Origin: an uncultured bacterium
Lineage (GTDB): Bacteria; Patescibacteriota; Saccharimonadia; UBA4664
Assembly (NCBI GenBank): GCA_963720265.1
Contig: CAVRET010000002.1
Coordinates: 71,602 to 135,601 of the forward strand
Length of the DNA stretch: 64,000 nucleotides
Direction of reading: 5' to 3'
Part shown: piece by piece, positions 1 through 28,284 of the stretch
Position numbering within the stretch: position 1 is the stretch's first letter
How the letters are laid out: the number at the start of each line of letters is the position of its first letter
The notes under the pieces: generated by a model
Seen by the model: only the letters and a program-made list of their open reading frames with translations
The model's database searches: none
What the model was told of the DNA's origin: nothing
Translations under genes and position numbers: made by a program

Positions 1-370
1 TGTTGTCAGTGTTGCCAATCTCGGTGTCACTGCTGTTAGCGTTGGCCACATTACCCGAGCCGTTGCTGCCGTCGGTTGAGCAACCGCAGTCCGAACCGTC
101 GCCGCCGACGTTGGTGTTCTTGCTGGCGGTCACGTTACCCGAACCAGCCGCCTGCTCGTTGAGGTTGCCAACTTGGGTGTCGTTCAGGTTGAACGACTGT
201 GAGCTGAGACTGTTGTTCAGCTTCACCTGGTTGTTCGAGTCAGCACCAGTGCCGCCGAAGCCGCCGGTGCCCGAGCCACCGATGTTAACACTACTGGCAG
301 CGGCAAAACCGGCCAGGCTCACGCTAGCCAAACCGATGGCTGCGTAACGAAGTACAGATGTCTTTGTCAT
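1..370 (-). CDS. secreted Asn/Thr/Gly-rich repeat protein, 5' part only (C-terminus lies beyond window start)
   Basis: Minus-strand ATG at 370-368 preceded by GAAAGGA. Translation is MTKTSVLRYAAIGLASVSLAGFAAASS... with a signal peptide, then NTNVGG and DCGCS motifs shared with the ORFs at 952-1617 and 47710-48570. It is absent from the ORF track because it has no stop in the window. The plus-strand ORF 3-347 is its antisense. Confidence 0.5.
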   Translation of the reverse strand, partial: MTKTSVLRYAAIGLASVSLAGFAAASSVNIGGSGTGGFGGTGADSNNQVKLNNSLSSQSFNLNDTQVGNLNEQAAGSGNVTASKNTNVGGDGSDCGCSTDGSNGSGNVANANSSDTEIGNTDN

Positions 371-433
371 CTGAGATCCTTTCGTTTAAGTTAGTTTATT
401 GTTTCTTTAGTACCGGGCCCGTAGGCCCGCCCT

Positions 434-949
434 TCAGTCCGACGACGACTCGTTGGTTGTTGAGCTGGTGCTAAAGACACTGGTACTAGAGAAGCTGCTT
501 GAGCTTCCATGGGTGTTCTGGCTGTTGCCATCCACCTGGGTCGAACTCCAACTATTTCCAGAATTATCAGCATTGTTGGAGTTCACATTCACATTCACGT
601 TGCGATTCCCGCCGGAATTGCTGTTGGCCGATCCATCCGAGGTCGAAACCGTGGTATCGTCGCCCGATACATCGAGCCGGCCACCACCGGGCAGATCAAC
701 ACTCGCCGAACCATCCTTCCCTATTGGGACTTGCTGGCCGTTAACATTCACACTAGTCGTAGTCTTAGTCCCTGGGGTCGCCTGGGGCGATTGCAACGGA
801 GATGGCGAAGTCGTTGCCACAGTTGACTCAGGAGCGCCGCCTTGGTCCGCCACTGCTACGGCCACCAGGCCAAGCGCCAGCGGTACTACCGGCAACAGCC
901 TCTGCAGAGTCCGTGGAATGTGAAGTTTCTGTAATCTCACCTCTCTCAT
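434..949 (-). CDS. secreted Ser/Thr/Asn-rich low-complexity protein
   Basis: ORF 434-1102 trimmed to the ATG at 949 (MREVRLQKL...), which is preceded by AAAGGAGGG with a 7-nt spacer. It has an N-terminal hydrophobic signal and an NVNVNVNSNN repeat. It starts 3 nt after the TAG stop of the upstream gene at 952. Confidence 0.5.
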   Translation of the reverse strand: MREVRLQKLHIPRTLQRLLPVVPLALGLVAVAVADQGGAPESTVATTSPSPLQSPQATPGTKTTTSVNVNGQQVPIGKDGSASVDLPGGGRLDVSGDDTTVSTSDGSANSNSGGNRNVNVNVNSNNADNSGNSWSSTQVDGNSQNTHGSSSSFSSTSVFSTSSTTNESSSD

Positions 950-951
950 AG

Positions 952-1617
952 CTATACCCTCCTTTCGTTGCGGCGACCGTAAAGTGCGCTGCCCAAACCA
1001 CCGAGCAAACTTAGCAACGCCGCCACGCCGAGCATCCCGGTAGACAGGCCGTTTGTCGCCTTCACCAATGACGCGGTTGGGGCTGCACTCGGCGCTTGCC
1101 AAGCCGCCCGCAAAGCCGACACATCAACCGGCACAAGTGCACCGGTTACCGGCAAAATCGCCGGCGCCACTGTAGCGGCACCCAGCACACTGCCGGAACC
1201 CACACCGCCGACCGGCTTGGTTACGCCGCTCACGGTCTTGCAACCGCAGTTAGCGCCACCCTGGCCCGACGCAGTGGCACTCGGTACCACAACGCTTGGC
1301 GCCTGGTTGCTGGTGTTAATCTGCGTCGTTGTGCCGTTATTGTTAGCCGCGTTGCCCGAGCCGGTACCACCAACGTTGGTGTTCTTACTGGCCGATACGT
1401 CACCGCTAACAGCTACCTGCGTATTGCCGTTCGAGACGCTCGTCACATTGAGATTCGTGTTCGAGTAATCGACCGTGTTCTCAACCTTGATCGCCTGCGT
1501 CGAGTCGGCGCCGGTGTCAGTAATGACCGCATTTGAGTCGGCCAAAGCCGAACCGGCCAACACGAGTGCCAGACTGCACGAAGCCGTCGTCACGCCCAAG
1601 ATTCGCATGGACTTCAT
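952..1617 (-). CDS. secreted repeat protein with an LPVTG-like motif and a C-terminal hydrophobic/RR tail
   Basis: Internal start MKSMRILGVTTASCSLALVLAGSALADSNA preceded by a strong RBS (AAAGGAGGAtatgcgATG). The signal peptide and the ALADSNA and NTNVGG motifs match the gene at 47710. LPVTG sits about 55 aa from the end and is followed by GMLGVAALLSLLGGLGSAL YGRRNERRV. Confidence 0.55.
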   Translation of the reverse strand: MKSMRILGVTTASCSLALVLAGSALADSNAVITDTGADSTQAIKVENTVDYSNTNLNVTSVSNGNTQVAVSGDVSASKNTNVGGTGSGNAANNNGTTTQINTSNQAPSVVVPSATASGQGGANCGCKTVSGVTKPVGGVGSGSVLGAATVAPAILPVTGALVPVDVSALRAAWQAPSAAPTASLVKATNGLSTGMLGVAALLSLLGGLGSALYGRRNERRV

Positions 1618-2718
1618 CGCATATCCTCCTTTCTTCAAAGCATTGGGGACCATTCCTACGACCATAAAAATTGGGTTATGTGGTTGCGGCGGCAACTCTA
1701 CATAACCCAACAAAAATGGTGTAGCAATTGAAGGAGAACCCTGGCTGGTTGGCGTATCACTGCGTGCTGCCGTGGCAAACCCACCCCGGCGCAACCAGAG
1801 CCCGTAAGAAGATACGAAGATGTCGAACAAAAGCACGGCCAGAGCAGTCAAGCCGGCAGCCACTGCCGGGCGCGGGATGATAGTTGTGTGCAGGACGAGC
1901 GGTTGAGGAACGGTAATCGCTGCTAGCTCAGCCGTCAGTCCTCCCAGCATGCCGTTGGACTTCGCCGGTGTCGGCGCACGAGCTGGTCCCGGAGCCGATG
2001 GTGCGGCCGGTGCCAGATCCTCAGTAAACGGCAAACGGTTGGTAATCGTCGGCTGAATTGGCAAGATCGTAGTTTGAAAGACCTCGGGCGCAGGTACAGT
2101 CTGGCCCTGACTCTGCGCCACAGGAGTCTTCACGGCGACCTCCGGAATCGCAGTCTGAGCAGAAGTAAGTTGCGGATCCGTAGTAGTAGCGTTTGAAACC
2201 GCCGATGCCGTCGCTGGAGTAGTAGTATCGCTGCTCGCAGGCTGAGTGGAGGTGGAAGTCGCTGCCGGGCTAGAAGCCGACGCCTCGCTCGTTGTGACAG
2301 GCTGAACTGCCGGTTTGTTAGTAACACCACCGGAAATAGCGCTGTTGGTATCAGTCTTACTGGAAGTTGTGGTTGTTAGCGTGCTATCGCTAGTTTGCCC
2401 ACCGGCTGACTCCGTCGGTGCAGCTGTTCCAGATGCGCCGACAGTACTGGGGTTGGAACCACTATTGTCGGCCGCAGCCGTCCCGGTTGAGTCCGAGTTT
2501 GCGGAATCAGCGGGGTCGACCGAGCTAGTAGTAACTTGATCGTTCGTCTGATGACGCACCACAGTCTGAGTTGTAGAGGTAGTTTGAGAAGTCGTGCCCA
2601 AACTGCTGCTCTCAGCAGCCAGCGCACTGCCACTCAAAACCACCACGGCTCCACCACTGGCGGCCGCCACTCCAATCGCAAATTGCACGAACCGAACCAA
2701 TCTCATTGCACCCCTCAC
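952..2718 (-). CDS. continuous 588-aa ORF: an upstream Ser/Thr-rich secreted module (TM plus RRGG near aa 300) fused in frame to the 952-1617 module
   Basis: ORF track. N-terminal signal MRLVRFVQFAIGVAAASGGAVVVLSGSALA and a long S/T-rich region. A hydrophobic LTALAVLLFDIFVSSYGLWLRRGG segment looks like the end of a sorting signal, yet no in-frame stop occurs before the next module's RBS and ATG. Confidence 0.4.
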   Translation of the reverse strand: MRGAMRLVRFVQFAIGVAAASGGAVVVLSGSALAAESSSLGTTSQTTSTTQTVVRHQTNDQVTTSSVDPADSANSDSTGTAAADNSGSNPSTVGASGTAAPTESAGGQTSDSTLTTTTSSKTDTNSAISGGVTNKPAVQPVTTSEASASSPAATSTSTQPASSDTTTPATASAVSNATTTDPQLTSAQTAIPEVAVKTPVAQSQGQTVPAPEVFQTTILPIQPTITNRLPFTEDLAPAAPSAPGPARAPTPAKSNGMLGGLTAELAAITVPQPLVLHTTIIPRPAVAAGLTALAVLLFDIFVSSYGLWLRRGGFATAARSDTPTSQGSPSIATPFLLGYVELPPQPHNPIFMVVGMVPNALKKGGYAMKSMRILGVTTASCSLALVLAGSALADSNAVITDTGADSTQAIKVENTVDYSNTNLNVTSVSNGNTQVAVSGDVSASKNTNVGGTGSGNAANNNGTTTQINTSNQAPSVVVPSATASGQGGANCGCKTVSGVTKPVGGVGSGSVLGAATVAPAILPVTGALVPVDVSALRAAWQAPSAAPTASLVKATNGLSTGMLGVAALLSLLGGLGSALYGRRNERRV

Positions 2719-2890
2719 GGAATCGGCAGTTAGTGTAAATTTTTTAGGACAAGCCCCAACCGCGTAAATGCACAGGCTTATCGAGAGAACAGATATAACT
2801 GTATCTGCACACTCTATACGGCAACATTGGACATTTTGCTAAAAGAAGCGTCGATTTTTTCAAGATTTACTGTAAGTTCGCACAACAGAG

Positions 2891-5416
2891 CTATTGGCCT
2901 TCGGTCGCAACGTCCACCTCAGGCTCGCCCACGAGCGCTACCGAAGCAACCTTGTCTCCTTCAGCCATCCGCATAATGCGCACACCTTGGGTCGCACGAC
3001 CAATAAGTGAAATGTTGGCCAGCGCCACCCGAATAACCTGACCCTGCGTAGACACCACCACAACCTCATCACTATCATTACCAATCGCGCGGACATCAAC
3101 TGTCTTACCGGTCTTGCCGGTGACGACCCCGGCCTTAATGCCGACGCCCCCTCGCGCATGGGTCGCAAACTGGTCTACCTTGGTACGCTTGCCATAGCCG
3201 TTCTGCATCACTACCAGCATTTCCATGCCAGCCCGCACAATGTCCATGCCTACCACCTCGTCACCGCTGCGTAATCGGATCCCACGCACGCCCCGGGTCG
3301 CCCGCCCCATCGGCCGCACCTCGCTCTCCTTAAACCGAATCGCCTGCGCCAGCGCGGTCGAAATAATAATCTCGTCCTTCCCGCCGGTGAGCTTCACCCA
3401 TTTAAGCTCGTCACCAGAATCGAGCTTAATCGCAATCAAACCGTTTGCACGTACGTTAGCGTAGTCAGCCAACGGCGTCTTCTTCACCGTCCCCAGTTTG
3501 GTTGTCATAAACAGATACGACTGATCGCTCTTGGCATCAAACGTAACGAGCGATGTCACCCGTTCGCCCTGGCCCAGCTGCAACAAGTTCACTACCGCCT
3601 GTCCCTTGGCCGTCCTGGACGCCGCCGGTACCTCGTATACCTTCAAACGGAACACCCGCCCCTTATTGGTGAAGAACAGCATAAAGTCGTGGTTTTGAGT
3701 CAGCACCAAGTGCTCCACCACGTCTTCTTCTTTCGTGGTCATGCCCATAATGCCTTTGCCGCCTCTGCCCTGACTCTTGTAGGTATTGGCCGGGATACGC
3801 TTAATGTAATTGCCGCTCGTGAGCGTCACTATCACCTGCTCATTCGGCACCAGCTCTTCCTCGCTGAATTTACCCAGCTCAGAGCCCACAATCTCAGTCC
3901 GGCGCTCGTCACCATACTTTGCCTTCAGTTCTTCCAATTCCTCGCGAATCACCCGCAAAATCTCAGACTCGCTAGACAGAATCTTTTCGAGCTCAGCAAT
4001 CAATTTTACAAGCTCGACCAACTCATCTTCGATCTTTTTACGTTCAAGACCTGCCAAAGTCCGAAGCTGCATGGCCAAAATCGCCCGCGCTTGAATTTCG
4101 CTTAAGGTGAACGCTTCGATCAGGTTCAGACGAGCCTCGTCAGTCGTTTGGCTGGCCCGAATCGTCTTAATCACCTCATCAATATGGTCAAGCGCAATTT
4201 TCAGGCCTTCCAGCACATGCGCTCGCTCCTTGGCTTTTCTAAGCTCAAATTCGGTCCGCCGCCGTACCACTACCTGCCGGTGCTTGAGGTATTCATGCAA
4301 CATCATTTCAAGATTAAGCACGCGCGGCTGCCGCCCGTTATCAACCAGCGCCAGCATGTTAACGTGGAATGCTGACTGCAACGGTGTCATCTTAAACAGC
4401 TGATTCAAAATCTTATTCGGATATGAATCTTTCTTCAGATCGATCACAATTTTTACACCACCGTCGCGGCTCGAGCTTTCATCACGCAGGTCGGCAATGC
4501 CCATCACCCGCTTGTCGTGCACCAGTTCAGCAATCTTCTCCACTAGGGTCGCCTTATTCACGGCATAGGGAATCTCTGTGACCACAATCTGTTCGCGACC
4601 CTTCTTGTCTTCCATGATCTCAGCCCGCGCCCGCACCACGATGCTACCGCGACCCGTACCATAGGCTTGCCGGATCGAATCCCGGCCATAAATCACCCCG
4701 CCGGTTGGGAAATCAGGTCCCTTTACATGTTTCATCAAATCATCCAGGGTCGCCTGCGGGTTATCAATGAGCTCAACGATTGCATCAGCAATCTCGGTCA
4801 AATTGTGCGGTGGAATGTTGGTCGCCATGCCGACCGCAATCCCAACCTGGCCATTTAACAGCAAATTCGGTAATTTGGCCGGCAATACCACGGGCTCACG
4901 CTTCGATCCGTCGTAATTTGGCCTAAAATCAACCGTGTCTTTCTCAATGTCGTTCAACAGCTCCTCGGTAATCGTCTGCATCCGGGCCTCGGTATAACGC
5001 ATAGCCGCCGGCGGGTCGCCGTCGAGCGAACCAAAGTTCCCTTGCCCGTCGACGAGCGGATACCGATACGAAAAATCCTGTGCTAGTCGGGCCATGGCGT
5101 CATAAATGGCAGCGTCCCCATGCGGGTGAAAATTACCCATCACATCACCAACCACCGACGCACTCTTGCGATACCTGGCTGTATGCCTGAGACCTTGCGA
5201 ATTCATGACATGGAGAATGCGCCGATGCACCGGCTTGAGCCCATCGCGCACGTCCGGCAGCGCCCGCGCCACAATCACGCTCATGGCATAGGCCAGATAG
5301 CTCGTTTCCATCTCATGCTCAAGCTTTTGCAGCCGCACCGTACCAATGTCGGTCTTAACCTGCTCAGGTTCCTCAGCCGGATTCTCTAACTCGTTCAGTT
5401 CCTTATCGTCGTCCAT
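2891..5416 (-). CDS. gyrA: DNA gyrase subunit A
   Basis: The 841-aa product contains [26 protein letters not shown] and [10 protein letters not shown], and its C-terminal beta-pinwheel repeats are present. It lies immediately downstream of gyrB. Confidence 0.95.
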
Positions 5417-5425: not shown

Positions 5426-7525
<2,100 letters not shown>

Positions 7526-10962: not shown

Positions 10963-13900
10963 TCACTCGCCGATCATAACGTTGCCGTTTTCGTCCACAT
11001 AGACCTCACCCGGTGCGAGTTTCTTCGGCTTTTCGGTCTTCACCTCGTTCGATTCCATTGGCTTGGTACCGGCCGTAGGCAAAATCAGCTTGCCGGGCAC
11101 TGCAGCTCCCTCGGCTTCCCCCGTCGAGGCCTGGGCGGGCTGCTGTGGCTGCGGAGGCGGCGGCGGAGGTGCGGACGGCGGAGCCGGCTTGCTCTCCGGC
11201 GGCTCAATGACCTTTTCCTTGTGGCTACCGTGATTTGCCGGCGCGTTTTCCTTATTCTTGTCGCGGTCACGCCAGTGCCGACGCTTATTGGCCTTACGAT
11301 TATCCGTTGAAACTGGGCGCTCAGCCTTGTCATCTTTGGCCGGTTTAGTCGGTTCGGGTTCAGGAGGTGGGGCTTGGGGCGCAGCCACCACTTCACTGGG
11401 AACATCTAATTTTTGGCTAGCCTCGCGCTCAGCCCGAGCTTTAGCCACATCGTCAGCTGCCAACGATTCCGCCTGCGGTACGTCCAAGTCTAAATCGTCA
11501 GATGCTGTCTGGACCACCCCGGACACCGGCATAGCTGCAGGTTGCGGTTTCGGCACATCAGGTGGCACTCCCATCATTTGTCCCGGATGTTTAATAACGG
11601 CAGCCTCAGGCTCGGCTCGGGCTTGCTGGACTGTGAGCACCGGCTCAGGCGTAGCAGGTGCAGCCAGAGGAGATGGTGGTGTTGGCTCAGGCCGTGGGGG
11701 CGGTACAGGCTTTGGCGCAGGCACTGGCGGCAGAGGTTCGGGTGTGGGCTCACGCACAGGCTCGGGCGCAGGGGCCGGCGGTCCCTGCGAGGCCGGTTCG
11801 CGTACTGGCGCTGGCTGAGTCGGTACCGGTGGGGGCGGCGGGGGCGCGGATACCGGTACGGACTGCGGAGCTAACGCGGCCGCCTCAGCCGCCTCTTCAC
11901 GCTTCAACTCACGCTGCAATTCCTCGCGTTTCGACTCAATTGGCTCGGTCGGCTGAATCACCTTAATGCCATGATGTTCAGACACCGGGACCAGCTCTTC
12001 CTTGGGCTGCAACTTCGTCGTCTTCGGTATCGGTAACCGACGATGCCGCTCCACTGATGAATCAAGCAACGACGTTCCGACCAACGCGTCGATCTGCTTC
12101 TCGACCTCATTGATTTGCTCAGCAGCCTGCGGCTGTGGCGCCACTACCACGGGCTGAACCTCCGCCGGCTCAGGCGCAACCGGCTCAGGCGACAAGATAG
12201 GTTCAGGAGTGGATGGTGGCACGGGTCTAGGCGCCAAAGCGGGAGCCAGCCTTACAGCCGGGAGTGGCTCCGGCGCCGGTGGGGTGGGTTCTATGGCTGG
12301 TTGCTCAGGCTGAGGTTCAGGTTCCGGCACTGGTTGCGGAGCAGGTGCAGGGACTGTAACAGGAGCCGAAGACTCAGGTTCTGGTTCTAGCGCTGGTGGC
12401 GGAAGTGGAGGTTCCGGCATTGGCTCGGGTTGCGGTATAAGCTCCGGTTCCGGTTCTGGCACGGGCAGGGGCGGCGGAGTTGGCGCAGGCTCGGGCACTG
12501 TTGGCGCCGCAACCGCCGGCATTGATTGGTCAATAAACGTCACACCCGGCGGCAAACCCTCGGTTGACATCAGACCCGAATCCGCTGAGGCGGGTTGCTC
12601 CGGCGCCGGCTTCGCTCCCGGATCAAGTACTTGGATCAGGTCCTCAGCGCCCTCCTCACTCGGCTGTGGTGGGGGAGCTACTGACGGCTGCATAGCGGCA
12701 GACCCGGCAACGCTCGCCGGCAAGCCAGAATCCGCCGCCGGGCCCATCGTCGGCCGCGCCGGCGTCTTACCACCGGTAATGTCGCTCAGCGATAATGTTC
12801 CGGGCGCGCTTGGCGCACTCGACCCAACTGGAGGGCGTAATGGCGACGGGGGTGGCGGTGGCACTGGTGGAGCCTCAACCGTTACGGTTGGTGCCTGCGC
12901 CACCGGCGAAGCATACGTAGTCTCTTCCATGACAGGTAACGGCTGTGGGGGCTGTGGAATCTGCTGTACCGGCGCTACCGGTGCTGGAGGAGGTGGCATG
13001 GATGGTAAGGGTAGAGGTGGCAGTGAGACAGGGGCCGGCTGTGGTGGAGGCGGTGGCGGTACTGGAGGTGTTGGCGGCGGAGCAGGCGCAGCGGCTGACG
13101 CCACTCCTTGCCCGTACAGGTCGATCGGCTGCATTGCAGCTCCAGCAGGCTGAATGGGAGCAGGTGCCGGCGGAGGAACCGGTGCCACGGGCAACGGGGG
13201 CGCCTGAACGGCCGCTACTTGACCACCCAAGGCTCCGGCCATACCCGCGAGACCCACTTGAGTAGCGGGATTTACGGCTGCAGGCTGCGGAGCCGGTGGC
13301 GGTACGGCGACTGGTGGCGCAACCGACCGCGCCGGCCGACCTGATAGCCGGTCCAAAATATCTTGCTCGACTTGAGCCCGCGCGTGGCCGAACTTAGCCG
13401 CGCTCAGTTGCTTAATCGCCTGCCCCAGCTCCAGGTTCGCACTCCCCAACGGCGGCGAATCGCGAATCGTAAACGGTTGACTCGGCAACCCGCCAATCAT
13501 GAGCCGCATGGCCGCGTTAAAGTTTGGCAAGTTCACCAGATCCCCAGCATCAAACACCGGCGAAAATTGCTTTACCATGAACTCAGCGTCTTCCGGTCCC
13601 ATCCGGTGTGCCACAATCGTACCGATATTGCCAAACACCGCATCGCGAATCTCCGGCCTGAGTTGGCCGATAAACTGGTTCGCCACGATCAGATTCAACC
13701 GATATTTCCTAGCCTCGCTCAAAATGCTCGCAAAGCTGTCGGTCGAAAAATTCTGAAACTCATCCACGTACAGCGCAAAGTCCGGCCGCTGATCTTCCGG
13801 CACCTCAGCCCGGCTCATGGCCGCCGCCTGGAACTTAATCACAAAAATCATACCGAGCAGTTGTGAGTTGAGCTCCCCTATTCGCCCCTTGCTCAGGTTC

Positions 13901-15768
13901 ACGATCAAGATCCGCCGCTGGTCCATCACCTCGCGCAAGTTAAACGCACTCTGCGTTTGACCGATAATGTTGCGCATCATTTCGTTGTTCATGAAAGCGC
14001 CAAATTTCGATACAAACCAGCCGAGCATTTCACTCTTGTGGTAGTCGCTCGTCTGGCCCATCTCTTTCGTCCAAAAATCGATCACGGTCGGATCACGCAA
14101 GTATTTGAACTTGTTCTTGAGGTACTCGGTGTCCGTAAACACCTTCGGAATCTCAATGAATGTACTGCCGTTCGGGTCGCTCATAAGCGTCAGTGCGGCA
14201 TTCCGGTACCAATGCTCGTACCGCGGTCCGATAATACCGGTGTGTCCGGGGTCGTACAGTTTGTACAGCATGTTGATCGTTTCTTGGACAATAAAGTCCT
14301 TTTGGGATGGATCCGTAAACTCAAACAAGTTGAGCCCCAATGGATAGTCGGTGTCTGCCGGGTTAAAGTAAATTACGTCCTCAGCCCGCTCTTTGGGCAC
14401 AAGCGCCAGCAGCTTCTCGGCCGAGTCGCCGTGAGGATCAATGAAGGCAAACCCGTTGCCCGCCAGCATGTCCTGCACTGCCAGGTTTTCGAGCATAGTC
14501 GACTTACCGGTGCCAGTTTGGCCCAAAATATAGGTATGCCGTCGTCGGTCCTCAGGACTCAGCCGGATTTCCTTTTGCACACCACGAAATTCGTTGTAGC
14601 CAAACAGGAGTCCCACCGGCGACACCTGGATCGGACCATCCACCTGCTTCGACTGCATCCGCTCCACTGCCGTACTCGGTGTAAACTGCGAATCCGGCAG
14701 ATGGAATAGCGTAGCCAGTTCTTCGCTCGATAACACCCCGCCTTTCAGCTCCGGCGGGAAAAAACGAAAAATAAATGCCGTCACCAGGCCTTGCACATCA
14801 AGCGCCGGCAAAAACTTAAACCCGTTCAATCCCGGGGTATCGAACAGCGCAAACGCCGTCGCGATATCCCTCAGTTCCTGCTGACTTCTAGCCACCGAAT
14901 CGGTCGATACCACTACCCGCACCAGGGCGTCAAAACCCGGGTGTTTGGTTTTTTCCTCGATCTGCTCCACCGCCGCCAGTTCCAGATTGGAAGCCAAGGG
15001 CACGCCGGCATCTTTCTCATCTGCTCGTCTGGCCGATGGCGCTTTGAGCGCAGCCTGAACTAAATCCTGCGGGGTAAATCCGAGTCCGGCTCCGCGGCCC
15101 TTGCGCAACCCATCGGCGACCACTGCCGACCGCCTAACCCACGTCGGGTTCGCCGGCCGAAGCATGATCTGAATCGCCGCACCGTCGGTACTGCCAAGGC
15201 TGGACAAAATGGCCAAGATTGCTTCCATCGGGTCGCGCTCAAGCGTTTTGTAGGTCGCGATCGGGTAGGCGCCTTCAGTTCGTAGCACCATTTCGCCGCC
15301 CATGGTCGCAGCCAACCGCCCCTCACGGTTAAAAATGTTGTAATCCTCAGTTTCTTCCAGCCGTGCACCCGGATAGGCCGTCAGAATCGCCTGCTTCACC
15401 AGGCTCACCAGTGGCACGGGAACGGCCGCGTAAAAGTGCACCACCCCACCGTTCGCAATCAGCTCCAGCGCAATCTGCCGCTGTCCGTACAGTCTAGCCT
15501 TGACGCCGGCCGTAGCCGTGCCGGCCAGCAAGTTGTATAGCACCTCAGCCTGAGCCACCTTTTCGCGCATGACCTCGCGCACGTCCCGGCTGCCAGCCGT
15601 GGTATCCTCCGACTGCGGCGGCAAATGAATCAGGATTGGCACCATCTTTAAGCCGCGCTCAATGGCCTTGGCCCGCCTGAGTTTGCGCTTGTATGTAAAG
15701 TAGGCCACGTAGCCTAAGCCCCCGGCCAGTGCAAAGAATATCAGCACTATGACGATGATTACGCTCAC
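10963..15768 (-). CDS. giant membrane-anchored FtsK/HerA/TraG-VirD4-superfamily P-loop ATPase with ~850-aa Pro-rich C-terminal tail
   Basis: The 1601-aa product has one N-terminal TM helix, then a ~380-aa domain. The ATPase carries a Walker A (YILGQTGTGKST), an FIDPHGD motif, an FALYVDEFQNF Walker B-like motif and a KYRLNLIVANQ segment. The remainder is extreme PAPEPV low complexity ending in a short conserved tail. Confidence 0.7.
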   Translation of the reverse strand: MSVIIVIVLIFFALAGGLGYVAYFTYKRKLRRAKAIERGLKMVPILIHLPPQSEDTTAGSRDVREVMREKVAQAEVLYNLLAGTATAGVKARLYGQRQIALELIANGGVVHFYAAVPVPLVSLVKQAILTAYPGARLEETEDYNIFNREGRLAATMGGEMVLRTEGAYPIATYKTLERDPMEAILAILSSLGSTDGAAIQIMLRPANPTWVRRSAVVADGLRKGRGAGLGFTPQDLVQAALKAPSARRADEKDAGVPLASNLELAAVEQIEEKTKHPGFDALVRVVVSTDSVARSQQELRDIATAFALFDTPGLNGFKFLPALDVQGLVTAFIFRFFPPELKGGVLSSEELATLFHLPDSQFTPSTAVERMQSKQVDGPIQVSPVGLLFGYNEFRGVQKEIRLSPEDRRRHTYILGQTGTGKSTMLENLAVQDMLAGNGFAFIDPHGDSAEKLLALVPKERAEDVIYFNPADTDYPLGLNLFEFTDPSQKDFIVQETINMLYKLYDPGHTGIIGPRYEHWYRNAALTLMSDPNGSTFIEIPKVFTDTEYLKNKFKYLRDPTVIDFWTKEMGQTSDYHKSEMLGWFVSKFGAFMNNEMMRNIIGQTQSAFNLREVMDQRRILIVNLSKGRIGELNSQLLGMIFVIKFQAAAMSRAEVPEDQRPDFALYVDEFQNFSTDSFASILSEARKYRLNLIVANQFIGQLRPEIRDAVFGNIGTIVAHRMGPEDAEFMVKQFSPVFDAGDLVNLPNFNAAMRLMIGGLPSQPFTIRDSPPLGSANLELGQAIKQLSAAKFGHARAQVEQDILDRLSGRPARSVAPPVAVPPPAPQPAAVNPATQVGLAGMAGALGGQVAAVQAPPLPVAPVPPPAPAPIQPAGAAMQPIDLYGQGVASAAAPAPPPTPPVPPPPPPQPAPVSLPPLPLPSMPPPPAPVAPVQQIPQPPQPLPVMEETTYASPVAQAPTVTVEAPPVPPPPPSPLRPPVGSSAPSAPGTLSLSDITGGKTPARPTMGPAADSGLPASVAGSAAMQPSVAPPPQPSEEGAEDLIQVLDPGAKPAPEQPASADSGLMSTEGLPPGVTFIDQSMPAVAAPTVPEPAPTPPPLPVPEPEPELIPQPEPMPEPPLPPPALEPEPESSAPVTVPAPAPQPVPEPEPQPEQPAIEPTPPAPEPLPAVRLAPALAPRPVPPSTPEPILSPEPVAPEPAEVQPVVVAPQPQAAEQINEVEKQIDALVGTSLLDSSVERHRRLPIPKTTKLQPKEELVPVSEHHGIKVIQPTEPIESKREELQRELKREEAAEAAALAPQSVPVSAPPPPPPVPTQPAPVREPASQGPPAPAPEPVREPTPEPLPPVPAPKPVPPPRPEPTPPSPLAAPATPEPVLTVQQARAEPEAAVIKHPGQMMGVPPDVPKPQPAAMPVSGVVQTASDDLDLDVPQAESLAADDVAKARAEREASQKLDVPSEVVAAPQAPPPEPEPTKPAKDDKAERPVSTDNRKANKRRHWRDRDKNKENAPANHGSHKEKVIEPPESKPAPPSAPPPPPPQPQQPAQASTGEAEGAAVPGKLILPTAGTKPMESNEVKTEKPKKLAPGEVYVDENGNVMIGE

Positions 15769-15790: not shown

Positions 15791-16267
15791 CTAAGCTGCT
15801 CCGGGTTTACCTGCCGCACTACCCCCTTGGTCCTTGTCCTTCGTGTTTGGATCACCGACCGACAGTCCGTAGCGCTTCTGCAAATAGTCCTCCTGCAGCT
15901 CTTCGATTGCCTCTTCCTCGCCGTGTGGGTCGCCGGCGTGCAACCGTACCTGCTCTTCCGCCTTGTTGACCCACTCCGGCTCAATCACATCGACATCCCC
16001 GGCTACAACCGGTGTCGGCACCACACCACCGCCGCTCACCTGTGGCGGCCCACCCGGCACGGCCGCAATCGCCGCCGCTACATCGGCCGGGCTCAGTCGC
16101 TGCTGTGAGCCGCCCGTTGGCTGGCCGCCTGTCGCGGCCCCCGTCTGTGGCGACAACTCCGGCTGCGCGGGCATCTCGCCACCCATCGGTTGCATGCCTT
16201 CCGGCCGCCCGCCCTGCGGTACCTCACCCGCCCCGGTTCCATTCGTAGGCAATGGTTGCTCGTTCAT
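15791..16267 (-). CDS. Gly/Pro/Gln-rich low-complexity hypothetical protein
   Basis: A 158-aa ORF immediately upstream of, and co-directional with, the giant ATPase. It has no recognisable motif. Confidence 0.4.
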   Translation of the reverse strand: MNEQPLPTNGTGAGEVPQGGRPEGMQPMGGEMPAQPELSPQTGAATGGQPTGGSQQRLSPADVAAAIAAVPGGPPQVSGGGVVPTPVVAGDVDVIEPEWVNKAEEQVRLHAGDPHGEEEAIEELQEDYLQKRYGLSVGDPNTKDKDQGGSAAGKPGAA

Positions 16268-16316: not shown

Positions 16317-17768
16317 TTAGTTGTGCACCCACACTGGCGTGCCAATAGTCGTCCAACCATACAAGAACTTGGCCGTGGCCAGCGGCAAGTTCACACACCC
16401 GTGCGACCCATCGTAGTAGTACCCGAATGGACCAGATGTTTCGCCAAAGTTGCCGTTACGCCAGCTCGCATCATGCAGCCCAAAGCCCTGGTAAAATGCC
16501 ATCCAGTACTGCACAAAATCATCATAGTCGTACGCCGGACCATAGGCATAGCCCACCAAGTCCGTATCCGTCTTCTTTTGGTAAATATGAAACATCCCGG
16601 TCACAGTCGGAAAACCAGCCCCCGTCGCACCGCTCGTTATTGGCGAGTCGTAAATCACCTGGCCGTTTTGCCACACCCACAAATGCTGCTTCGATAAATT
16701 CACCTCAACGTACTGCGGCAAATTAAGCGCTGTAAGCGAGGTCGAAACCGTCGCAAAGGCCACCGGTTGCGAGGTAATCGAATACGCCAGCGGCGCCTCG
16801 TTGGTAACGGCCGCGTCGAGTGCATTTTCGAGGCCGGCCGTATCAATCGCCGTGCCGTTCACGCCTGTCCGAGTGACCTTGCTCGCACCGTTCACTATGG
16901 TCATAGTCTGATTTACCGCGGCCACATCAAGCTGCTTAGCCAGCCCCTGCACATAGCCGGCCAACTTAGAACTATCGACCTGCGGCACCAGTTTGTAAGT
17001 CAACCCGTTGGGCTGCTTGACGAAATCAAGCCACGCACCGATTTGAGCCCGCGTTGGTGTAATGGTCTGACCGTTATAGGACAACTTAACCGGTGTTGCC
17101 ATCAGCTTTGTCGCTGCCGCCAGCGTTGGCCCAAGCATCGAAACCCGAATGTCGGCCGGCTCGGCCCGCGGCACCAAGGTAAGCGCACCACTCGAATCGT
17201 TTGCAACGTTCGTCTGCACCAGCTTCTCCAAGCCAATGCGATCAACAGTCCAGCCATTCTTGTCGGGTACAGTCGTAAGTTGGCCGTTCTTCACATTCAC
17301 GGTAGCATCTACCGGCGCGACCCCAATCTTGTCCACCACACCGATCGCAAACGCATTCAGCTTTGACCAATCAAGATCATAGGCCAGCGGCACCGGATCT
17401 TGGCTGAACGGCGGCACCCAATCATCACGTCCGCTGTCATAAGCGCTATCAATCGTTGCCTCGACGTTGTATGTCACACCAAGCTGCGCCGCGCCCAGGG
17501 TGTAATGGTCGCCGCCGGCGTTCAGGTTGAGTTGAAACCCGTTTGCTTCCGCCGCCACTACCCGGCGCGCCGCCGCCAGCGACATGCCCCCCACATCCTG
17601 GCTGCCGATCACAGTCCCTGGCAGCATCCGACCGTCATACCAAGCCTGAAGTGCTAAATGCGTTGCCAGAACACAAAATACAACCGCCAGACCAATGGCC
17701 GCCAGTCGGCTGCTCGAGGTATATCCCTCACTGCCATGGAGCTCCGGCTCCAATCTCCGCCTCAGCAT
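16317..17768 (-). CDS. L,D-transpeptidase (YkuD) family protein with N-terminal TM anchor
   Basis: The C-terminal catalytic motif is YYYDGSHGCVNL (S/T-H-G-C). It has a TM anchor near the N-terminus and long beta-rich spacer domains. Confidence 0.75.
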   Translation of the reverse strand: MLRRRLEPELHGSEGYTSSSRLAAIGLAVVFCVLATHLALQAWYDGRMLPGTVIGSQDVGGMSLAAARRVVAAEANGFQLNLNAGGDHYTLGAAQLGVTYNVEATIDSAYDSGRDDWVPPFSQDPVPLAYDLDWSKLNAFAIGVVDKIGVAPVDATVNVKNGQLTTVPDKNGWTVDRIGLEKLVQTNVANDSSGALTLVPRAEPADIRVSMLGPTLAAATKLMATPVKLSYNGQTITPTRAQIGAWLDFVKQPNGLTYKLVPQVDSSKLAGYVQGLAKQLDVAAVNQTMTIVNGASKVTRTGVNGTAIDTAGLENALDAAVTNEAPLAYSITSQPVAFATVSTSLTALNLPQYVEVNLSKQHLWVWQNGQVIYDSPITSGATGAGFPTVTGMFHIYQKKTDTDLVGYAYGPAYDYDDFVQYWMAFYQGFGLHDASWRNGNFGETSGPFGYYYDGSHGCVNLPLATAKFLYGWTTIGTPVWVHN

Positions 17769-17794: not shown

Positions 17795-20116
17795 TCAGTT
17801 ACCAGCCCTAAATATCGCGCCCAACTTGCGCGTCAACTTTAAGCGCACGGCCCTCTCTATCTCAGTCGCCTCTGCCTCAGTCGGAGTTCGGTCATGACGC
17901 TCCACGGTTAAACGCAAGGTCAACGCTTTCTTGCCTGTTTCAATCTGGTCACCCTGATATTCATCCACGTATGTCACCGGCTGCGGAGCAACGGCACTCT
18001 CGACTTCATGCCATGTTACGGTGAGCGGTAGCTCCGCCGTAATGTCACGGCTGATCGCCGGGAACTTCGACAATCCTGCAAACTGCTTGGGGCGACTCGC
18101 ATTTAGCAGCGGCGCCAGGTCTAATTCCAGATACGCCACCTCATCACGGATTTTCATCTCCTGCAACACTTGCGGGTGCACCTGACCAAGCTCGCCGATG
18201 CGCCGCCCCCCCACCGCGACCGATCCAGTCCGTCCAGCTGCAAAGCCGGTCGGCTCTGCTATCGATTCCACGGTTAAGGTAACGTTGAGCTCCCGCGCCA
18301 ATCCGTCAACAATACCTTTCAGTTTGGCGAAGGCACCCTTTGGCCGGCGAATGGTCACGCCCAGCCTCTGCGGCTCGTTCGGCTGTTCGCCAGGCCCTTG
18401 CTTCAAGAACACGGCCGATAGTTCGTAAAACCCAACCGCCTCTGCATAGGTCCGGTTTCGCTCCAAGACCGCCATGTGGCTCGGCCACAGTGAACTCCGT
18501 AAGTAGGCCTGCTCCTGCGATAAGGGGTTCTTTAGCTTCAAATGCTCTTGTGGCAACAACCCGGCCGCCGATAACTGGCCCTCGGAGATGAAGGCGTAGG
18601 TTGTCACCTCAAACAATCCGGCCGCAAACAACACATCCCGAAGCTGACGTCGCTTGGCTCGGTCACGATCAAAAATCACTCGCCGGGGGCGCCATGCCGG
18701 CAAGGTCGAAGGTACCTGATCGTAGCCCACTACCCGTATCACCTCTTCGGCTAAATCCTCAGCCAACCGCAAGTCGGGTCGCCACCAAGGTACCTTTGAA
18801 ACCAAAATGTGATCACCCTCTGCGATTGCCTCTATTCCGAGTCGTAACAAACATTGAACTATTTCCTTACTCGAAAAATCTCGACCCACAAACCGCTCAA
18901 GCCATATCCGATCAAATGTAATCGAATATGCTGCCGGTTTAGCTTGGAGCGCATCACTGACGCCGACAAGTCGTGCACCAGCCACTTCCGTCAGTAGCTG
19001 TTCGGCGCGCGACATTGCAAAAGCCGGCAGCTCTACCGGTAGACCACGTTCAAACCTGGCACTGGCTTCGGTCCTCAGCCCATGCCGCTGCGCCGTCTTG
19101 CGCACTGTCGCTGCGTCAAACACTGCCGCTTCCAAAAGAATCTCAGTCGTTGCGGTCGTTACCTCTGTAGCCGCTCCGCCCATGACACCGGCTAGCGCAA
19201 TCGGCCCCGATGCATCTGTAATAATCAAGTCTTCAGGTGTGAGCCGCCGCTCTACCCCGTCGAGGGTCGTAAGCTCTTCTCCCGCCTTTGCTCGCCTCAC
19301 CGCAATCGGTGGCTTCACTTTTGCAGCGTCGAACGCATGCAGCGGCTGCCCAATGTCGAGCATCACATAGTTGGTTACGTCCACCACTGGATGGATTGCC
19401 CGTACCCCGGCCGCCTGCAACCACGATAGCATGTCCTCCGGCGTCGAGACGCCTGTCTTCACTGCAAAATGTCCAAGCATATACCGGCCGGCTTCGGTTT
19501 TTTTCTCAAGTTCCGGCCCCTTGCCTGCACGCAAAGACCGCGGCTCCTCAAGCTCAATGAGCTCACCATTGGTCATCGCAGCCACCTCTCTAGCCAAACC
19601 CAGCACACTCAAAACGTCGAAGCGATTGGCCGGGGTCTTCAAGTCGATTATCGTATCCGGGGGATAAACATTCTGCACCGCAGTACCGGGAACCGCGTCA
19701 TCTGGCAGCTCCAAGATTCCCTCATGGTCGTCACCCAGGCCAAGCTCACGTTCGCTACATAGCATGCCTTCGCTAATTTCGCCGCGCAATGTAACTTTCT
19801 CGATCTTTTCGCCGTTTGGAAGGACTGCCCCAATCTGCGCCAGCGCCACTTTGAGATCGGCTCGTACGTTCGGCGCGCCGCAGACAATCCGGAAGTCGCG
19901 CGTGCCATCTGTTACGAGCACCAAATGTAGTCGATCAGCGGCTGGATGTTGAACAACTTCTTTAACCAGACCGACGACAACCTTTTTGTCAATTTCAGCC
20001 AACAGATCAACGTGCTCAATTTCCATGCCTGCCCGCGCCAAGGCCGCCACAATTTCTTCATCACTCAACATTGTGCGACGTAGCCAAGTTTTAACCCAAG
20101 CCGATGAAACCTTCAT
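17795..20116 (-). CDS. pheT: phenylalanine--tRNA ligase beta subunit
   Basis: The 773-aa product starts MKVSSAWVKTWL, as is typical of PheT, and has B3/B4 and B5 regions. It is adjacent to pheS. Confidence 0.9.
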   Translation of the reverse strand: MKVSSAWVKTWLRRTMLSDEEIVAALARAGMEIEHVDLLAEIDKKVVVGLVKEVVQHPAADRLHLVLVTDGTRDFRIVCGAPNVRADLKVALAQIGAVLPNGEKIEKVTLRGEISEGMLCSERELGLGDDHEGILELPDDAVPGTAVQNVYPPDTIIDLKTPANRFDVLSVLGLAREVAAMTNGELIELEEPRSLRAGKGPELEKKTEAGRYMLGHFAVKTGVSTPEDMLSWLQAAGVRAIHPVVDVTNYVMLDIGQPLHAFDAAKVKPPIAVRRAKAGEELTTLDGVERRLTPEDLIITDASGPIALAGVMGGAATEVTTATTEILLEAAVFDAATVRKTAQRHGLRTEASARFERGLPVELPAFAMSRAEQLLTEVAGARLVGVSDALQAKPAAYSITFDRIWLERFVGRDFSSKEIVQCLLRLGIEAIAEGDHILVSKVPWWRPDLRLAEDLAEEVIRVVGYDQVPSTLPAWRPRRVIFDRDRAKRRQLRDVLFAAGLFEVTTYAFISEGQLSAAGLLPQEHLKLKNPLSQEQAYLRSSLWPSHMAVLERNRTYAEAVGFYELSAVFLKQGPGEQPNEPQRLGVTIRRPKGAFAKLKGIVDGLARELNVTLTVESIAEPTGFAAGRTGSVAVGGRRIGELGQVHPQVLQEMKIRDEVAYLELDLAPLLNASRPKQFAGLSKFPAISRDITAELPLTVTWHEVESAVAPQPVTYVDEYQGDQIETGKKALTLRLTVERHDRTPTEAEATEIERAVRLKLTRKLGAIFRAGN

Positions 20117-25598: not shown

Positions 25599-26054
25599 CT
25601 AAACTATAGCTTTCAATAAACCGTCGATGCCCCGCTCAAACGCCGTCTCATCCTGCACACTCAAACGCTCAAATAATTCCTTTTGTCGCCGTGCCATCAT
25701 TGCCGCCGCCTCCCCCACTGCCTGCTTCCCTCGATCGGTCAAAGCTAGTACGTTCTCGCGCTTGCTCTTCGGATGCGGCTGCTGGATTACGAGCCCGCGT
25801 GTACCAAGTACTTCAACCTGCCGCGTTACAACTGCCGGCGTTACGTCCAAATAGCTGGCCAGCTCTCGCTGGCTCGCCTCGCCGAGTACGGCCAGCCCAT
25901 CAAGCAGCCTAAATTGAGAAAAGGTCAGCGCGAAGCTGACCTTTAACTCTGACTCCACCTCTCGCTCGAGGCTATTTGCGACTCGGGCGATTTTGTTGAG
26001 AAGTGATTTCTCAAATTTTGATTGAGAATTCCTTACCTGCACATTGAACTCCAT
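25599..26054 (-). CDS. MarR-family transcriptional regulator
   Basis: A winged HTH is present (FSQFRLLDGLAVLGEASQRELASYLDVTPAVVTRQVEVL). The ORF track extends to 26165 using a TTG. The internal ATG (MEFNVQ...) gives the typical ~150-aa size and has an AGGGG RBS. Confidence 0.7.
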   Translation of the reverse strand: MEFNVQVRNSQSKFEKSLLNKIARVANSLEREVESELKVSFALTFSQFRLLDGLAVLGEASQRELASYLDVTPAVVTRQVEVLGTRGLVIQQPHPKSKRENVLALTDRGKQAVGEAAAMMARRQKELFERLSVQDETAFERGIDGLLKAIV

Positions 26055-26353
26055 AAACAATATACCCCTAAATAATTTAGGGGTCAACAGTTTTCCCTCA
26101 CGATTTATCCACATGCTATCCCCCATCCGCGGCGCCAAACCGAACACCCAACCTAAATCCGTCAACTCTATCTGACAGTAAGCACGCTCCAGGATACGAC
26201 AGCATTAGAAATGCTATATTTTCCGAAATTCCGACTTAAAGTAAGGCTGAATCATATAGTATTTCTCTATTTATTAAATTAATGCATCTCGCAAGCTTAG
26301 GGATGCTAAAATAACAAAGCTGAAAAAGCCGACTTGAAAGGCGGTGTACCTAC

Positions 26354-26557
26354 ATGCCTGAAACCAATTGGATCGCCAGGCGGCACAGCGGAGGCCACTC
26401 CACCTATGCCACTGCCGAACACGCCGACTCGACCAACCAGACTACCCTAAGAGGACTGGCCATGCGCTTTCCAACCGAAGGACAGGCGAAGAAGGTTTTC
26501 GCCGACATGAACCCTGGCGAGCAAGCGCTATGGGAGACCCTCGAGGTACACAACTAA
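26354..26557 (+). CDS. small hypothetical protein (67 aa)
   Basis: It has an RBS-like AAAGG upstream and ends 8 nt before a perfect 16-bp stem hairpin. Support is weak. Confidence 0.25.
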   Translation: MPETNWIARRHSGGHSTYATAEHADSTNQTTLRGLAMRFPTEGQAKKVFADMNPGEQALWETLEVHN

Positions 26558-26564
26558 GTCCAGC

Positions 26565-26602
26565 CTGAACTCTTCCGGGGTTCATCCCCCGGAAGAGTTC
26601 AG
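26565..26602. repeat. perfect 16-bp stem hairpin (terminator-like, no U-tract; REP/IS200-end-like core)
   Basis: CTGAACTCTTCCGGGG ttcatc CCCCGGAAGAGTTCAG. Its CCGGGG...CCCCGG core resembles the IS200 end hairpins. Confidence 0.45.
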
Positions 26603-26776
26603 ATCCAGTTCGTGATTAAGTTAAAATTACTTTAACTACTTCTCTTTCTTTTAAAGTTTATTAAAAAATTCGATAATAATAAGGTTGCAGCGTGATTGAA
26701 TTATCATTTTTTTGGCCAACGATAATGTTATAAAAACTGAAATTATTGCAGAAATTAAGTGTGATTTGGCAACATT

Positions 26777-26807
26777 AAAACCGCCTACGTCGACGTTAGG
26801 CGGTTTT
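26777..26807. terminator. bidirectional rho-independent terminator
   Basis: AAAA-CCGCCTAcgtcgacgtTAGGCGG-TTTT is near-palindromic and sits between the convergent small ORF and vapC. Confidence 0.4.
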
Positions 26808-26812
26808 AATGT

Positions 26813-26844
26813 TCGTCCTGTGCGGCCAGCTTCGAAACTGGCAC
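26813..26844. repeat. direct repeat copy 1 (30/32 identical to 27625-27656), flanking the vapBC cassette
   Basis: TCGTCCTGTGCGGCCAGCTTCGaAACTGGcAC. The repeat contains the internal hairpin CCAGcTTC/GAAcTGG. Confidence 0.5.
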
Positions 26845-26854
26845 ACCTCAGATG

Positions 26855-27528: not shown

Positions 27529-27624
27529 GATAATGGTACTAAAGTAAAGGTAAACGATTTACTTTATATATGACAGCTCAATCGTAAACATCTTGTCTGC
27601 ACAATAAAAGCATAAGAATCTTGG

Positions 27625-27656
27625 TCGTCCTGTGCGGCCAGCTTCGGAACTGGGAC
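27625..27656. repeat. direct repeat copy 2 (partner of 26813-26844)
   Basis: TCGTCCTGTGCGGCCAGCTTCGgAACTGGgAC. Confidence 0.5.
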
Positions 27657-27667
27657 GACTTATCCAA

Positions 27668-28231: not shown

Positions 28232-28284
28232 ATATCGTACCTCTTACCTTAATTCTCTAGCGCAACACTATACAGTCTGCGCAC

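Follow-up and report, generated by a model that had tools for sequence, protein, structure and literature searches.

Results

A conserved gene set adjoins gyrBA in one clade of soil Saccharimonadia

The window, that is, the whole 64,000-nucleotide stretch of DNA analysed here, comes from a soil Saccharimonadia (CPR) bacterium. Directly downstream of gyrB-gyrA it carries four genes on the minus strand, termed A, B, C and D: gene A at 1618-2706, gene B at 952-1617 (221 aa), gene C at 434-949 (171 aa) and gene D at 1-370, where it is truncated by the edge of the window. The description of A rests on an alignment of nine orthologues, tblastn and hydropathy, and that of B on comparison with homologues, motif counts and hydropathy. 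A and B occupy a single uninterrupted ORF (952-2706, minus strand) with a 584-aa product; called mechanically, this ORF reaches a GTG at 2718, and the ATG at 2706 is supported as the start of A because homologues begin with MRL…. A further gene, E, lies on the plus strand at 47716-48570 (284 aa counted from its ATG), flanked by a trehalase gene on one side and an LCP (LytR_cpsA_psr) gene on the other.

The minus-strand order gyrB-gyrA-A-B-C-D forms a conserved operon in 22 Saccharimonadia loci, and the synteny gyrA-A-B-C-D, with or without a further gene F behind it, was kept in each locus of sufficient length. A was detected at all loci by tblastn, with E values from 1e-80 to 1e-14. A scan of positions 1-3200 for promoters and terminators gave nothing better than background. 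By hydropathy, all four genes encode a signal-peptide-like or signal-anchor-like N-terminus. The signal peptides and the secreted or surface nature ascribed to these genes by the initial annotation stand, in that the products are envelope proteins; A and C do not belong to the same family as the others. Searches of the literature for Saccharibacteria surface proteins or LPXTG, for the Saccharimonadia gyrA region and for Patescibacteria Asn-rich secreted proteins returned no relevant paper. The locus is a conserved envelope operon, wholly uncharacterised, next to gyrBA in one clade of Saccharimonadia from soil.

A domain of about 80 residues unites B, D and E

The products of B, D and E share an Asn/Thr/Gly-rich domain of ~80 aa with the consensus I.nTGpdS.N…N.N.V.V.N.N.Q.A.SG.a.V..NT.GG…SG.A.N. 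An HMM of this domain, run over the whole window, found one copy in B, two in D, three in E and none in A or C. In composition-corrected BLASTP the three proteins were mutually similar (E 1e-11 to 1e-15), in agreement with the HMM matches. These results bear out the proposal that B, D and E form one real family, and the further relative proposed at 47710-48570 is indeed present, as gene E.

The initial annotation had gone further and described an expanding family of surface proteins, with four or five paralogues in tandem and two of these merged. The genes do look alike at first sight: all four have an N-terminal signal-like sequence and low-complexity regions rich in Asn, Ser, Thr and Gly, and uncorrected BLASTP of A or C against the others gave E values of 1e-4 to 1e-11. 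Composition correction, however, removed the similarities of A and C or reduced them to the signal peptide, with E values of 0.004 or worse. The domain HMM had no match in either protein and found B, D and E alone in the whole window; moreover, both A and C belong to conserved orthologue families of their own, with different architecture. The motifs ALADSNA, NTNVGG and CGC, held to be common to all modules, were found in B, D and E and were absent from A and C, and CGC or CxC occurred in just 9 of 53 B homologues (motif count). Relatedness is accordingly limited to B, D and the distant E, with A and C similar merely in signal peptide and composition. No expansion was visible, as the gene order A-B-C-D(-F) and the domain counts (one in B, two in D) were identical in all examined loci; copy number and gene order are fixed across the clade. 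Combined, these results leave a tandem array of paralogues with hardly any likelihood.

An exhaustive search of 1.84 billion cluster representatives with the domain profile gave 669 matches at E<=1e-3, and Saccharimonadia was the sole organism named among them. In 137 of 154 family members, the protein terminates exactly at the domain end. PDB profile searches built on 6 or on 78 sequences of the domain gave nothing below E=2, and Pfam/NCBIfam scans of the ten largest proteins of the family gave no meaningful match; the lone near-match in family scans was Fervidolysin_SD2 (E 0.047, below its cut-off). AF2 modelled B, from 53 sequences, at pLDDT 56.8, with the C-terminal helix alone confident, and E, from 4 sequences, at pLDDT 27.6, with no confident model of the domain. 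As judged from these searches, the ~80-aa segment is a new, lineage-restricted secreted domain with no relative in Pfam, NCBIfam or the PDB.

Architecture of the individual proteins

Gene A encodes a type-I membrane protein whose cytoplasmic tail is conserved. Its signal peptide is followed by a variable ectodomain rich in Thr, Ala, Ser and Pro, a conserved juxtamembrane segment (consensus L.IQP.IT…DLA…PSAP…PAKS.G), a transmembrane helix and a conserved cytoplasmic tail of ~45 residues (RRGGFATAARSD…FATP.LLGYV…SP.LMV). In the alignment of nine orthologues, conservation stops after SP.LMV and the final ~15 codons are variable. The hydrophobic segment followed by RRGG that had been noted at the end of A is present in the sequence; what had been taken for a sorting signal is instead a transmembrane anchor preceding the conserved cytoplasmic tail. 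Pfam/NCBIfam scans of A and the nine A orthologues were without meaningful match. Since all conserved motifs of A are intact, the possibility that it is a pseudogene was dismissed.

B opens with a signal peptide (ALA|DS), after which comes a single copy of the ~80-aa domain (1294-1542). A Gly-rich linker that includes NCGC and an LPVTG motif (1141-1155) follow, and then the conserved PVDVSALRAAW, a transmembrane helix near the C-terminus (~982-1050) and RRNERRV as the tail. The 54 B homologues among the matches listed are all of 196-284 aa, in round figures about 200-250 aa, and 52 of these 54 span at least 81% of B as stand-alone proteins. The motif, here written LPx[T/V]G, was compared in 53 family members: LPEVG was found in 19, LPVTG in 16 and other forms in the rest, position 4 was Thr in ~45% and Val in ~55%, and only L, P and G were invariant. 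It sits 60-65 residues from the C-terminus, and the polar or amphipathic segment PVDVSALRAAW(H)PQ, ~35 residues, lies between motif and helix. The initial annotation had rightly seen an LPVTG placed unusually far from the C-terminus, although the distance in the window is 62 residues rather than about 55. B had no match at E<=1 to the LPXTG-anchor models TIGR01167 and PF00746 in the Pfam/NCBIfam scans, and a crude scan of the window ORFs (64 kb of a ~1.1-Mb genome) for a TLxTC-type sortase signature found nothing convincing. Taken at the level of sequence, the LPVTG of B is not a canonical sortase signal, and B is held in the membrane by its C-terminal helix.

Small and rich in Ser and Asn, the product of C has an N-terminal signal or anchor and is either secreted or anchored; BLASTP, the domain HMM and its own orthologues place it in a distinct family that lacks the ~80-aa domain. 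The product of D is secreted; it bears a signal peptide and two domain copies. It is complete in locus L032 (216 aa), where the first copy carries a DCGC insertion and the protein ends, without an anchor, exactly where the second copy ends. E likewise lacks an anchor; its signal peptide (ALA|DS) is followed by three domain copies in tandem. The F protein is ~775 aa long and unanchored; D, E and F carry 2-4 domains each. Pfam/NCBIfam scans of B, C, D and E were without meaningful match.

The A-B junction in the window and in related loci

The ORF runs on the minus strand from 2718 (GTG) or 2706 (ATG) to 952 with no stop between A and B, the read-through sequence at the junction being …NALKKGGYAMKSMR…. 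The start signals of B are all there: a ribosome-binding site (AAAGGAGGA, 1624-1632), a spacing of 7 nt, a start codon (ATG) at 1617 and a signal peptide of its own. Both the missing stop and the second set of start signals had been described in the initial annotation. The exact 584-aa ATG-start product is on record from NCBI and ENA sources, on a contig of 1,108,292 bp and on a Logan contig; exact protein look-ups of the 588-aa GTG-start product, of the 221-aa B and of P0055 found none of the three on record. The independent Logan de Bruijn assembly of ERR11523669 matches positions 1-4831 of the window (4831 bp) at 100% identity, junction included, an agreement at assembly level, as both assemblies may rest on the same reads.

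Comparison of the junction in 22 loci revealed 13 ATGA overlaps, 7 stops located 2-85 nt before the ATG of B and 2 in-frame stop-less junctions, that of the window and that of L007; the loci are phylogenetically related, so that this tally does not count independent events. L007 reaches the stop-less state via a different sequence, and the two linkers are unlike each other (NALKKGGYA in the window, RHSQKGGFI in L007). In L027, A is in the frame of B, yet has a stop. Beneath the end of A lies a block conserved as DNA (GGTTCCCAAYGCTTnnAGAAAGGAGGA in 19 loci; GGTCCCCAATGCTTTGAAGAAAGGAGGA in the window, 1624-1651, minus strand) that contains the Shine-Dalgarno sequence (SD) of B. Depending on the genome, A reads this block in three frames, as VPNAYRKEEMR*, as FPTLTERRIRI* or as …IERRK*. 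The spacer from GCTT to AAGGAGG is 5 nt in most relatives and 6 nt in the window, L001 and L005; in L001 and L005, the usual frame is regained by other indels upstream. The block of the window also contains a C4 run (1645-1648). A hairpin masking the SD by pairing with the conserved UUCCC was considered and rejected on inspecting the pairing.

Discussion

We consider it likely that window positions 1-2706 hold four separate envelope-protein genes, A to D, in a conserved operon of one Saccharimonadia clade, and that the apparent fusion of A and B is a frame variant. An ATGA stop/start overlap is a classic arrangement for translational coupling, and in most relatives A ends at the TGA that overlaps the ATG of B. 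The final ~15 codons of A appear to be free of protein constraint while lying on a nucleotide-conserved block that holds the strong SD of B. Small indels would then shift the frame of A over the block; two of the frames would lead to a stop at or near the ATG of B, and the third, which is that of B itself, may have none. In the window, one extra base in the block would put the tail of A in this third frame, so that the usual TGA of the overlap is not read and A runs in frame into B. Of the two options offered by the initial annotation, a lost stop thus comes closer, with a 1-nt indel as its cause, and an assembly error is unlikely in view of the identical Logan assembly and of L007.

Translation of B most likely still starts from its own SD and ATG, both of which are kept. 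Ribosomes started on A would yield an A-B polyprotein, for which hydropathy and charge suggest a workable topology: the helix of A would pass from outside to inside, a positively charged cytoplasmic loop of ~65-75 residues would follow, and the signal peptide of B would lead from inside to outside, its intact ALA|DS site being available to signal peptidase. We propose that the stop-less state is tolerated because the A and B parts could both reach their normal positions. It may nevertheless be mildly deleterious or recent, given that ATGA is strongly over-represented (13/22 loci).

The missing stop could also be an artefact, with a spurious base in the C4 run or in GAAGAAAGG (1628-1636) hiding the real stop of A. 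One base fewer, leaving CCC in the run or turning GAAGAAAGG into GAGAAAGG, would restore a stop: without one C, A ends in …MVPML* with a TGA 23 nt before the ATG of B, and without one A it ends in VPNALRKEDMR* with an ATGA overlap, near the class consensus VPNAYRKEEMR*. The C run differs from that of the nearest relative, L001, by a single base, and a stop is present in 20 of the 22 loci. On the other hand, the homopolymers concerned are just 3-4 nt long, the Logan assembly gives the same sequence, and the 6-nt spacer recurs in L001 and L005, so that this base is not peculiar to the assembly of the window; L007, moreover, is stop-less by a different sequence. The rest of the window has no broken genes, and its coding density of 88% and normal gene lengths give no sign of widespread indel error. 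A systematic sequencing error common to both assemblies is possible, but we judge an artefact improbable overall. Slightly less probable still is a selected fusion, in which A and B would form one obligate membrane protein of two parts, or a polyprotein that signal peptidase cuts, with an advantage of the fusion itself such as a fixed 1:1 stoichiometry. An in-frame junction without a stop has arisen at least twice (window and L007), the topology and the intact signal peptide and cleavage site of B are compatible with it, and the shared +1 insertion suggests persistence over some evolutionary time. Yet a true fusion should have lost the downstream start signals or conserved its linker, whereas the SD, spacing and ATG of B are fully kept as in unfused relatives and the linker residues differ between the two loci; two fused junctions in 22, together with L027, are in our informal judgement no more than random frame drift might produce.

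The frame variant has a practical consequence, as the recorded 584-aa protein is best handled as two genes, A and B; homology transfer from the joined product would mislead. The junction further provides a case in which a gene tail lying over the initiation region of its neighbour drifts through all three frames, the stop-less one included, without obvious harm. None of these findings overturns current understanding.

Secreted proteins confined to one lineage are candidate components of the surface structures that bring these episymbionts into contact with their hosts. Anchored B and unanchored D, E and F may, tentatively, be joint building blocks of a coat or fibre on the cell surface, a role suggested by the signal peptides, the anchored versus free architecture and the many family members that end at the domain end, though not supported by the AF2 models. 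A bolder reading, which we hold to be improbable, combines a self-assembling Saccharimonadia-specific module with a new tail signal and a natural A-B polyprotein. The one-domain anchored B would nucleate or tether polymers of unanchored D, E and F, and the poor AF2 monomer models would reflect a fold formed only on assembly. The LPx[T/V]G-PVDVSALRAAW-helix-RR tail would act as a novel type of signal for envelope sorting or processing, and signal peptidase would resolve the polyprotein at its internal signal peptide.

Comparison with known systems

The A-B pair resembles ATGA-coupled gene pairs in that the TGA of A lies over the ATG of B in 13 of the 22 related loci, with a strong SD inside the end of A; the window retains this SD, its spacing and the ATG. 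It departs from them in the window and in L007, where the upstream stop is absent and A shares the frame of B, so that no termination occurs; coupling there would be plain read-through, giving a fusion product beside internally initiated B. The junction of the window would be a derived, stop-less variant of the overlap.

In the canonical LPXTG signal of Gram-positive sortase substrates, Thr is conserved at position 4, and the motif lies within about 35-40 residues of the C-terminus, directly followed by a hydrophobic segment of ~20 residues and a short basic tail. B has a literal LPVTG, a later hydrophobic helix and the basic tail RRNERRV. Its motif, however, is more distant from the C-terminus (60-65 residues) and separated from the helix by PVDVSALRAAW, Val stands at position 4 in ~55% of homologues, and neither TIGR01167 nor PF00746 matches B.

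The curli subunits CsgA and CsgB are built of Gln/Asn/Gly-rich beta-solenoid repeats, and the domain shares with them a superficial alternating Asn/Gln/Gly/Ser/Ala pattern (Q.A.SG.a.V..NT.GG…SG.A.N) and possibly the logic of anchored plus secreted subunits. In contrast, hhalign of the domain profile against a CsgA sequence gave a probability of 0.1%, the Pfam scan had no Curlin_rpt (PF07012) match, and the host appears monoderm-like, with no CsgG/E/F-type secretion genes nearby.

The Streptomyces chaplins (Pfam DUF320) comprise long, cell-wall-anchored forms and short, secreted ones. They differ from B, D and E in sequence, with no detectable similarity and no Pfam match at E<=1 for the three proteins (DUF320, PF03777); the domain described here is Asn/Thr/Gly-rich rather than hydrophobic, and the anchor of B is a transmembrane helix, accompanied by an atypical LPx[T/V]G, instead of a sortase signal. 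The likeness is one of analogy, in the layout of genes and domains: in both systems, a small secreted domain is found in an anchored protein (here B) and in unanchored ones (here D and E, with two or three copies), encoded by clustered, lineage-specific genes.

Results

Downstream of gyrB (5426-7525, 699 aa) and the adjacent gyrA (2891-5416, 841 aa), the minus strand encodes four envelope proteins, A to D. A and B share a single long ORF (952-2718), of which A forms the upstream part (1618-2706) and B the downstream part (952-1617); they are followed by C (434-949) and by D, which starts at 370 and is truncated by the window edge. As the initial annotation had stated, no in-frame stop separates A from B, and the elements it described on either side of the junction are present. 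A starts with a signal peptide; its hydrophobic helix (AVAAGLTALAVLLFDIFVS) leads into RRGG, and its tail is conserved. B is preceded by its own ribosome binding site (AAAGGAGGA, 1624-1632), separated by 7 nt from an ATG at 1617 that opens a typical signal peptide, MKSMRILGVTTASCSLALVLAGSALA|DS. Between the stop of C at 434 and the start of D at 370, the minus strand contains a GC-rich inverted repeat (CGGGCC…GGCCCG, ~405-430) without a T-run, which could form an mRNA-processing or stabilising hairpin setting the relative levels of D.

The four modules had been regarded as paralogues, a view that holds for only part of them. B, D and the distant protein E (47710-48570) are mutually related (E-values of 1e-11 to 1e-15, composition-corrected BLASTP) through a domain of ~80 aa with the local consensus ITDTGADSNN.I…TNLN.T.V.N.N.Q.A.SGNV.A..NTNVGG.V.SGNA.N.N.T, of which E has three tandem copies by BLASTP. 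Matches of A and C to the domain proteins were confined to the signal peptide or driven by composition (0.004 or worse after correction), and a domain HMM run over all window ORFs matched just B, D and E. Complete D, taken from a contig overlapping the window edge, is 216 aa long with two domain copies, and ends exactly where the second copy ends. The cysteine motif (NCGC in B at 1237-1248, DCGC in D at 76-87) proved not to be a feature of the whole family: CxC (CGC, CNC or CDC), which in B lies in a Gly-rich linker and might form a disulfide, bind metal or serve otherwise, is limited to 9 of the 53 B homologues (among them P0002, P0003, P0008, P0017, P0024, P0027, P0030 and P0037), and apart from the DCGC of D in the window genome, cysteine is absent from this site in all remaining family members.

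Searching for homologues of B gave 54 proteins with lengths of 196-284 aa, including 52 stand-alone proteins spanning at least 81% of B; the few with a named source are from Candidatus Saccharimonadia. In the contigs of these homologues and in loci fetched from genome and metagenome collections, the gene order is invariant: gyrB-gyrA-A (~260-345 aa)-B (~220 aa)-C (~170 aa)-D (~200 aa)-F (~775 aa). As gyrA is 84-88% identical among loci, they form one fairly narrow clade. The domain count is always one in B and two in D; F, which has no Pfam match, has three or four weak, divergent copies (L002 7982-10306, L006 6957-9215, L007 6871-9228, L008 6923-9253, L011 6899-9223). F is encoded after D in every relative and is expected just past the left edge of the window, where a signal-peptide ORF at the end of the Logan contig L032, beginning MKYRRWIATLLL, is probably the start of its counterpart. 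Searches of Pfam and NCBIfam gave zero matches for the proteins encoded after gyrA. The fixed gene order and copy numbers point to a conserved operon and not, as had been proposed, to a locally expanding array.

The LPVTG motif of B (residues 155-159) is indeed unusually far from the C-terminus, with 62 residues remaining (~55 in the initial annotation). The 53 B homologues share the form LPx[T/V]G (T in ~45%, V in ~55%), always 60-65 residues from the C-terminus, and in all of them it precedes PVDVSALRAAW(H)PQ, which is conserved, then a spacer, a transmembrane helix and RR.ERRV. Given this variation at position 4, the distance, and the absence of matches in B to the LPXTG-anchor models of Pfam and NCBIfam, B lacks the features that define a sortase substrate and this assignment was rejected. 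The conserved tail may act as a signal of another kind, for processing or for interaction.

The A-B junction was resolved in 22 loci. In 13 of them the TGA of A overlaps the ATG of B (ATGA), in 7 A stops 2-85 nt upstream of this ATG, and in 2, the window and L007 (CAZGZY010000016.1), A is in the frame of B and stop-less. These frequencies were taken from DNA loci because the protein search with B may under-report fused forms; the 584-aa A-B product (P0059) is in the protein collection yet was missed by that search. The prevalence of ATGA suggests that the overlap is favoured.

Protein conservation of A stops at the motif SP.LMV(A/S)(D/E), and the ~15 codons beyond it overlie a ~27-nt block, GGTTCCCAAYGCTTnnAGAAAGGAGGA, located upstream of the ATG of B (1624-1651, minus strand) and at the equivalent position in L001-L029. 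The block is conserved at the nucleotide level even between loci that share just ~40-60% identity in the B protein, and A reads it in three frames depending on the genome (VPNAYRKEEMR*, FPTLTERRIRI*, …IERRK*, and the frame of B itself), indicating a constraint on DNA or RNA and not on the peptide of A. Most simply, this constraint is the translation-initiation region of B; since the block continues for ~15 nt past the Shine-Dalgarno sequence, it may have an additional role, for instance as an RNA element or as a binding site for a protein.

The distance between GCTT and AAGGAGG is 6 nt in the window and 5 in most loci, and the extra base recurs in L001 and L005, the two loci most closely related to the window, which regain the ATGA frame via other indels further upstream (for example GGTCCCCAATG in the window versus GATTCCAATG in L001). 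Removing one A of GAAGAAAGG from the window would give VPNALRKEDMR* and the ATGA overlap, nearly what is typical of the other class. The most parsimonious history would be a single +1 insertion in the ancestor of the three lineages, for which those of L001 and L005 later compensated and that of the window did not.

An assembly error at the junction, the other option raised initially, is improbable. The Logan assembly of ERR11523669 (L032, 5401 bp) is 100% identical to positions 1-4831, junction included, and an NCBI/ENA contig of 1,108,292 bp is likewise a recorded source of the identical 584-aa protein. Homopolymers at the junction are just 3-4 nt long, and the window has 88% coding density, no signs of scattered frameshifts and intact long genes (gyrA, gyrB, pheT and a 1601-aa ORF). 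Furthermore, L007 is stop-less as well, through a clearly different sequence.

Elsewhere in the window, minus-strand ORFs of 1601 aa (10963-15768) and 158 aa (15791-16267), both without a Pfam match, adjoin the gene (16317-17768) of an L,D-transpeptidase that carries a peptidoglycan-binding domain, next to pheT (773 aa, 17795-20116); the 1601-aa ORF may encode another large envelope protein. A tRNA-Pro(CGG) gene (32512-32587) and the tmRNA gene (54087-54465) are on the minus strand. GC content is ~0.45 at 26000-30000 versus ~0.55 elsewhere, which might reflect acquired DNA or ribosomal-protein/RNA genes.

Discussion

The joined A-B ORF is a real but fairly ordinary feature and not a new kind of system: within a conserved envelope operon, a frame variant of one base links two genes into a single ORF. 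B retains its full set of initiation signals, together with an intact signal peptide and AxA cleavage site. Translation of B would start at its own ATG, as in relatives, while ribosomes started on A would run on into B to give the 584-aa product. In this product the helix of A would be oriented from outside to inside, the A-B loop of ~65-75 residues, with RR… and …KK, would remain cytoplasmic, and the signal peptide of B would re-insert from inside to outside, so that signal peptidase could cut after ALA and free normal mature B. With topology and cleavage compatible in this way, the stop-less state would be near neutral, which fits its presence in 2 of 22 loci.

The results serve annotation and point to a new lineage-specific secreted domain. 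The family search by profile proposed initially was run exhaustively against 1.84 billion cluster representatives and gave 669 proteins at E<=1e-3 (246 at E<=1e-10), with Candidatus Saccharimonadia as the only organism names attached. The majority have two copies (~195 aa, as in D) or three (~285 aa, as in E), and the highest count is six. Among 154 proteins examined, 137 terminate exactly where a domain copy does, and a hydrophobic segment at the C-terminus is present in just 2. E is flanked on the minus strand by a GH37-like trehalase (46134-47489) and a LytR_cpsA_psr (LCP) protein (48635-49726); as enzymes of the LCP type link polymers to the cell wall, this neighbour fits a cell-envelope context. 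Profile searches of the PDB with the domain found nothing, and AF2 gave no confident model; the alternating pattern N.N.V.V.N.N.Q.A.SG and long strands predicted at low confidence suggest a beta-rich unit. Our best guess, a tentative one, is that the domain proteins form a surface coat or fibre. Comparing the domain with a CsgA sequence gave a negative result, and the arrangement described here, one anchored and several free multi-copy members, is like that of chaplins and curli in logic only.
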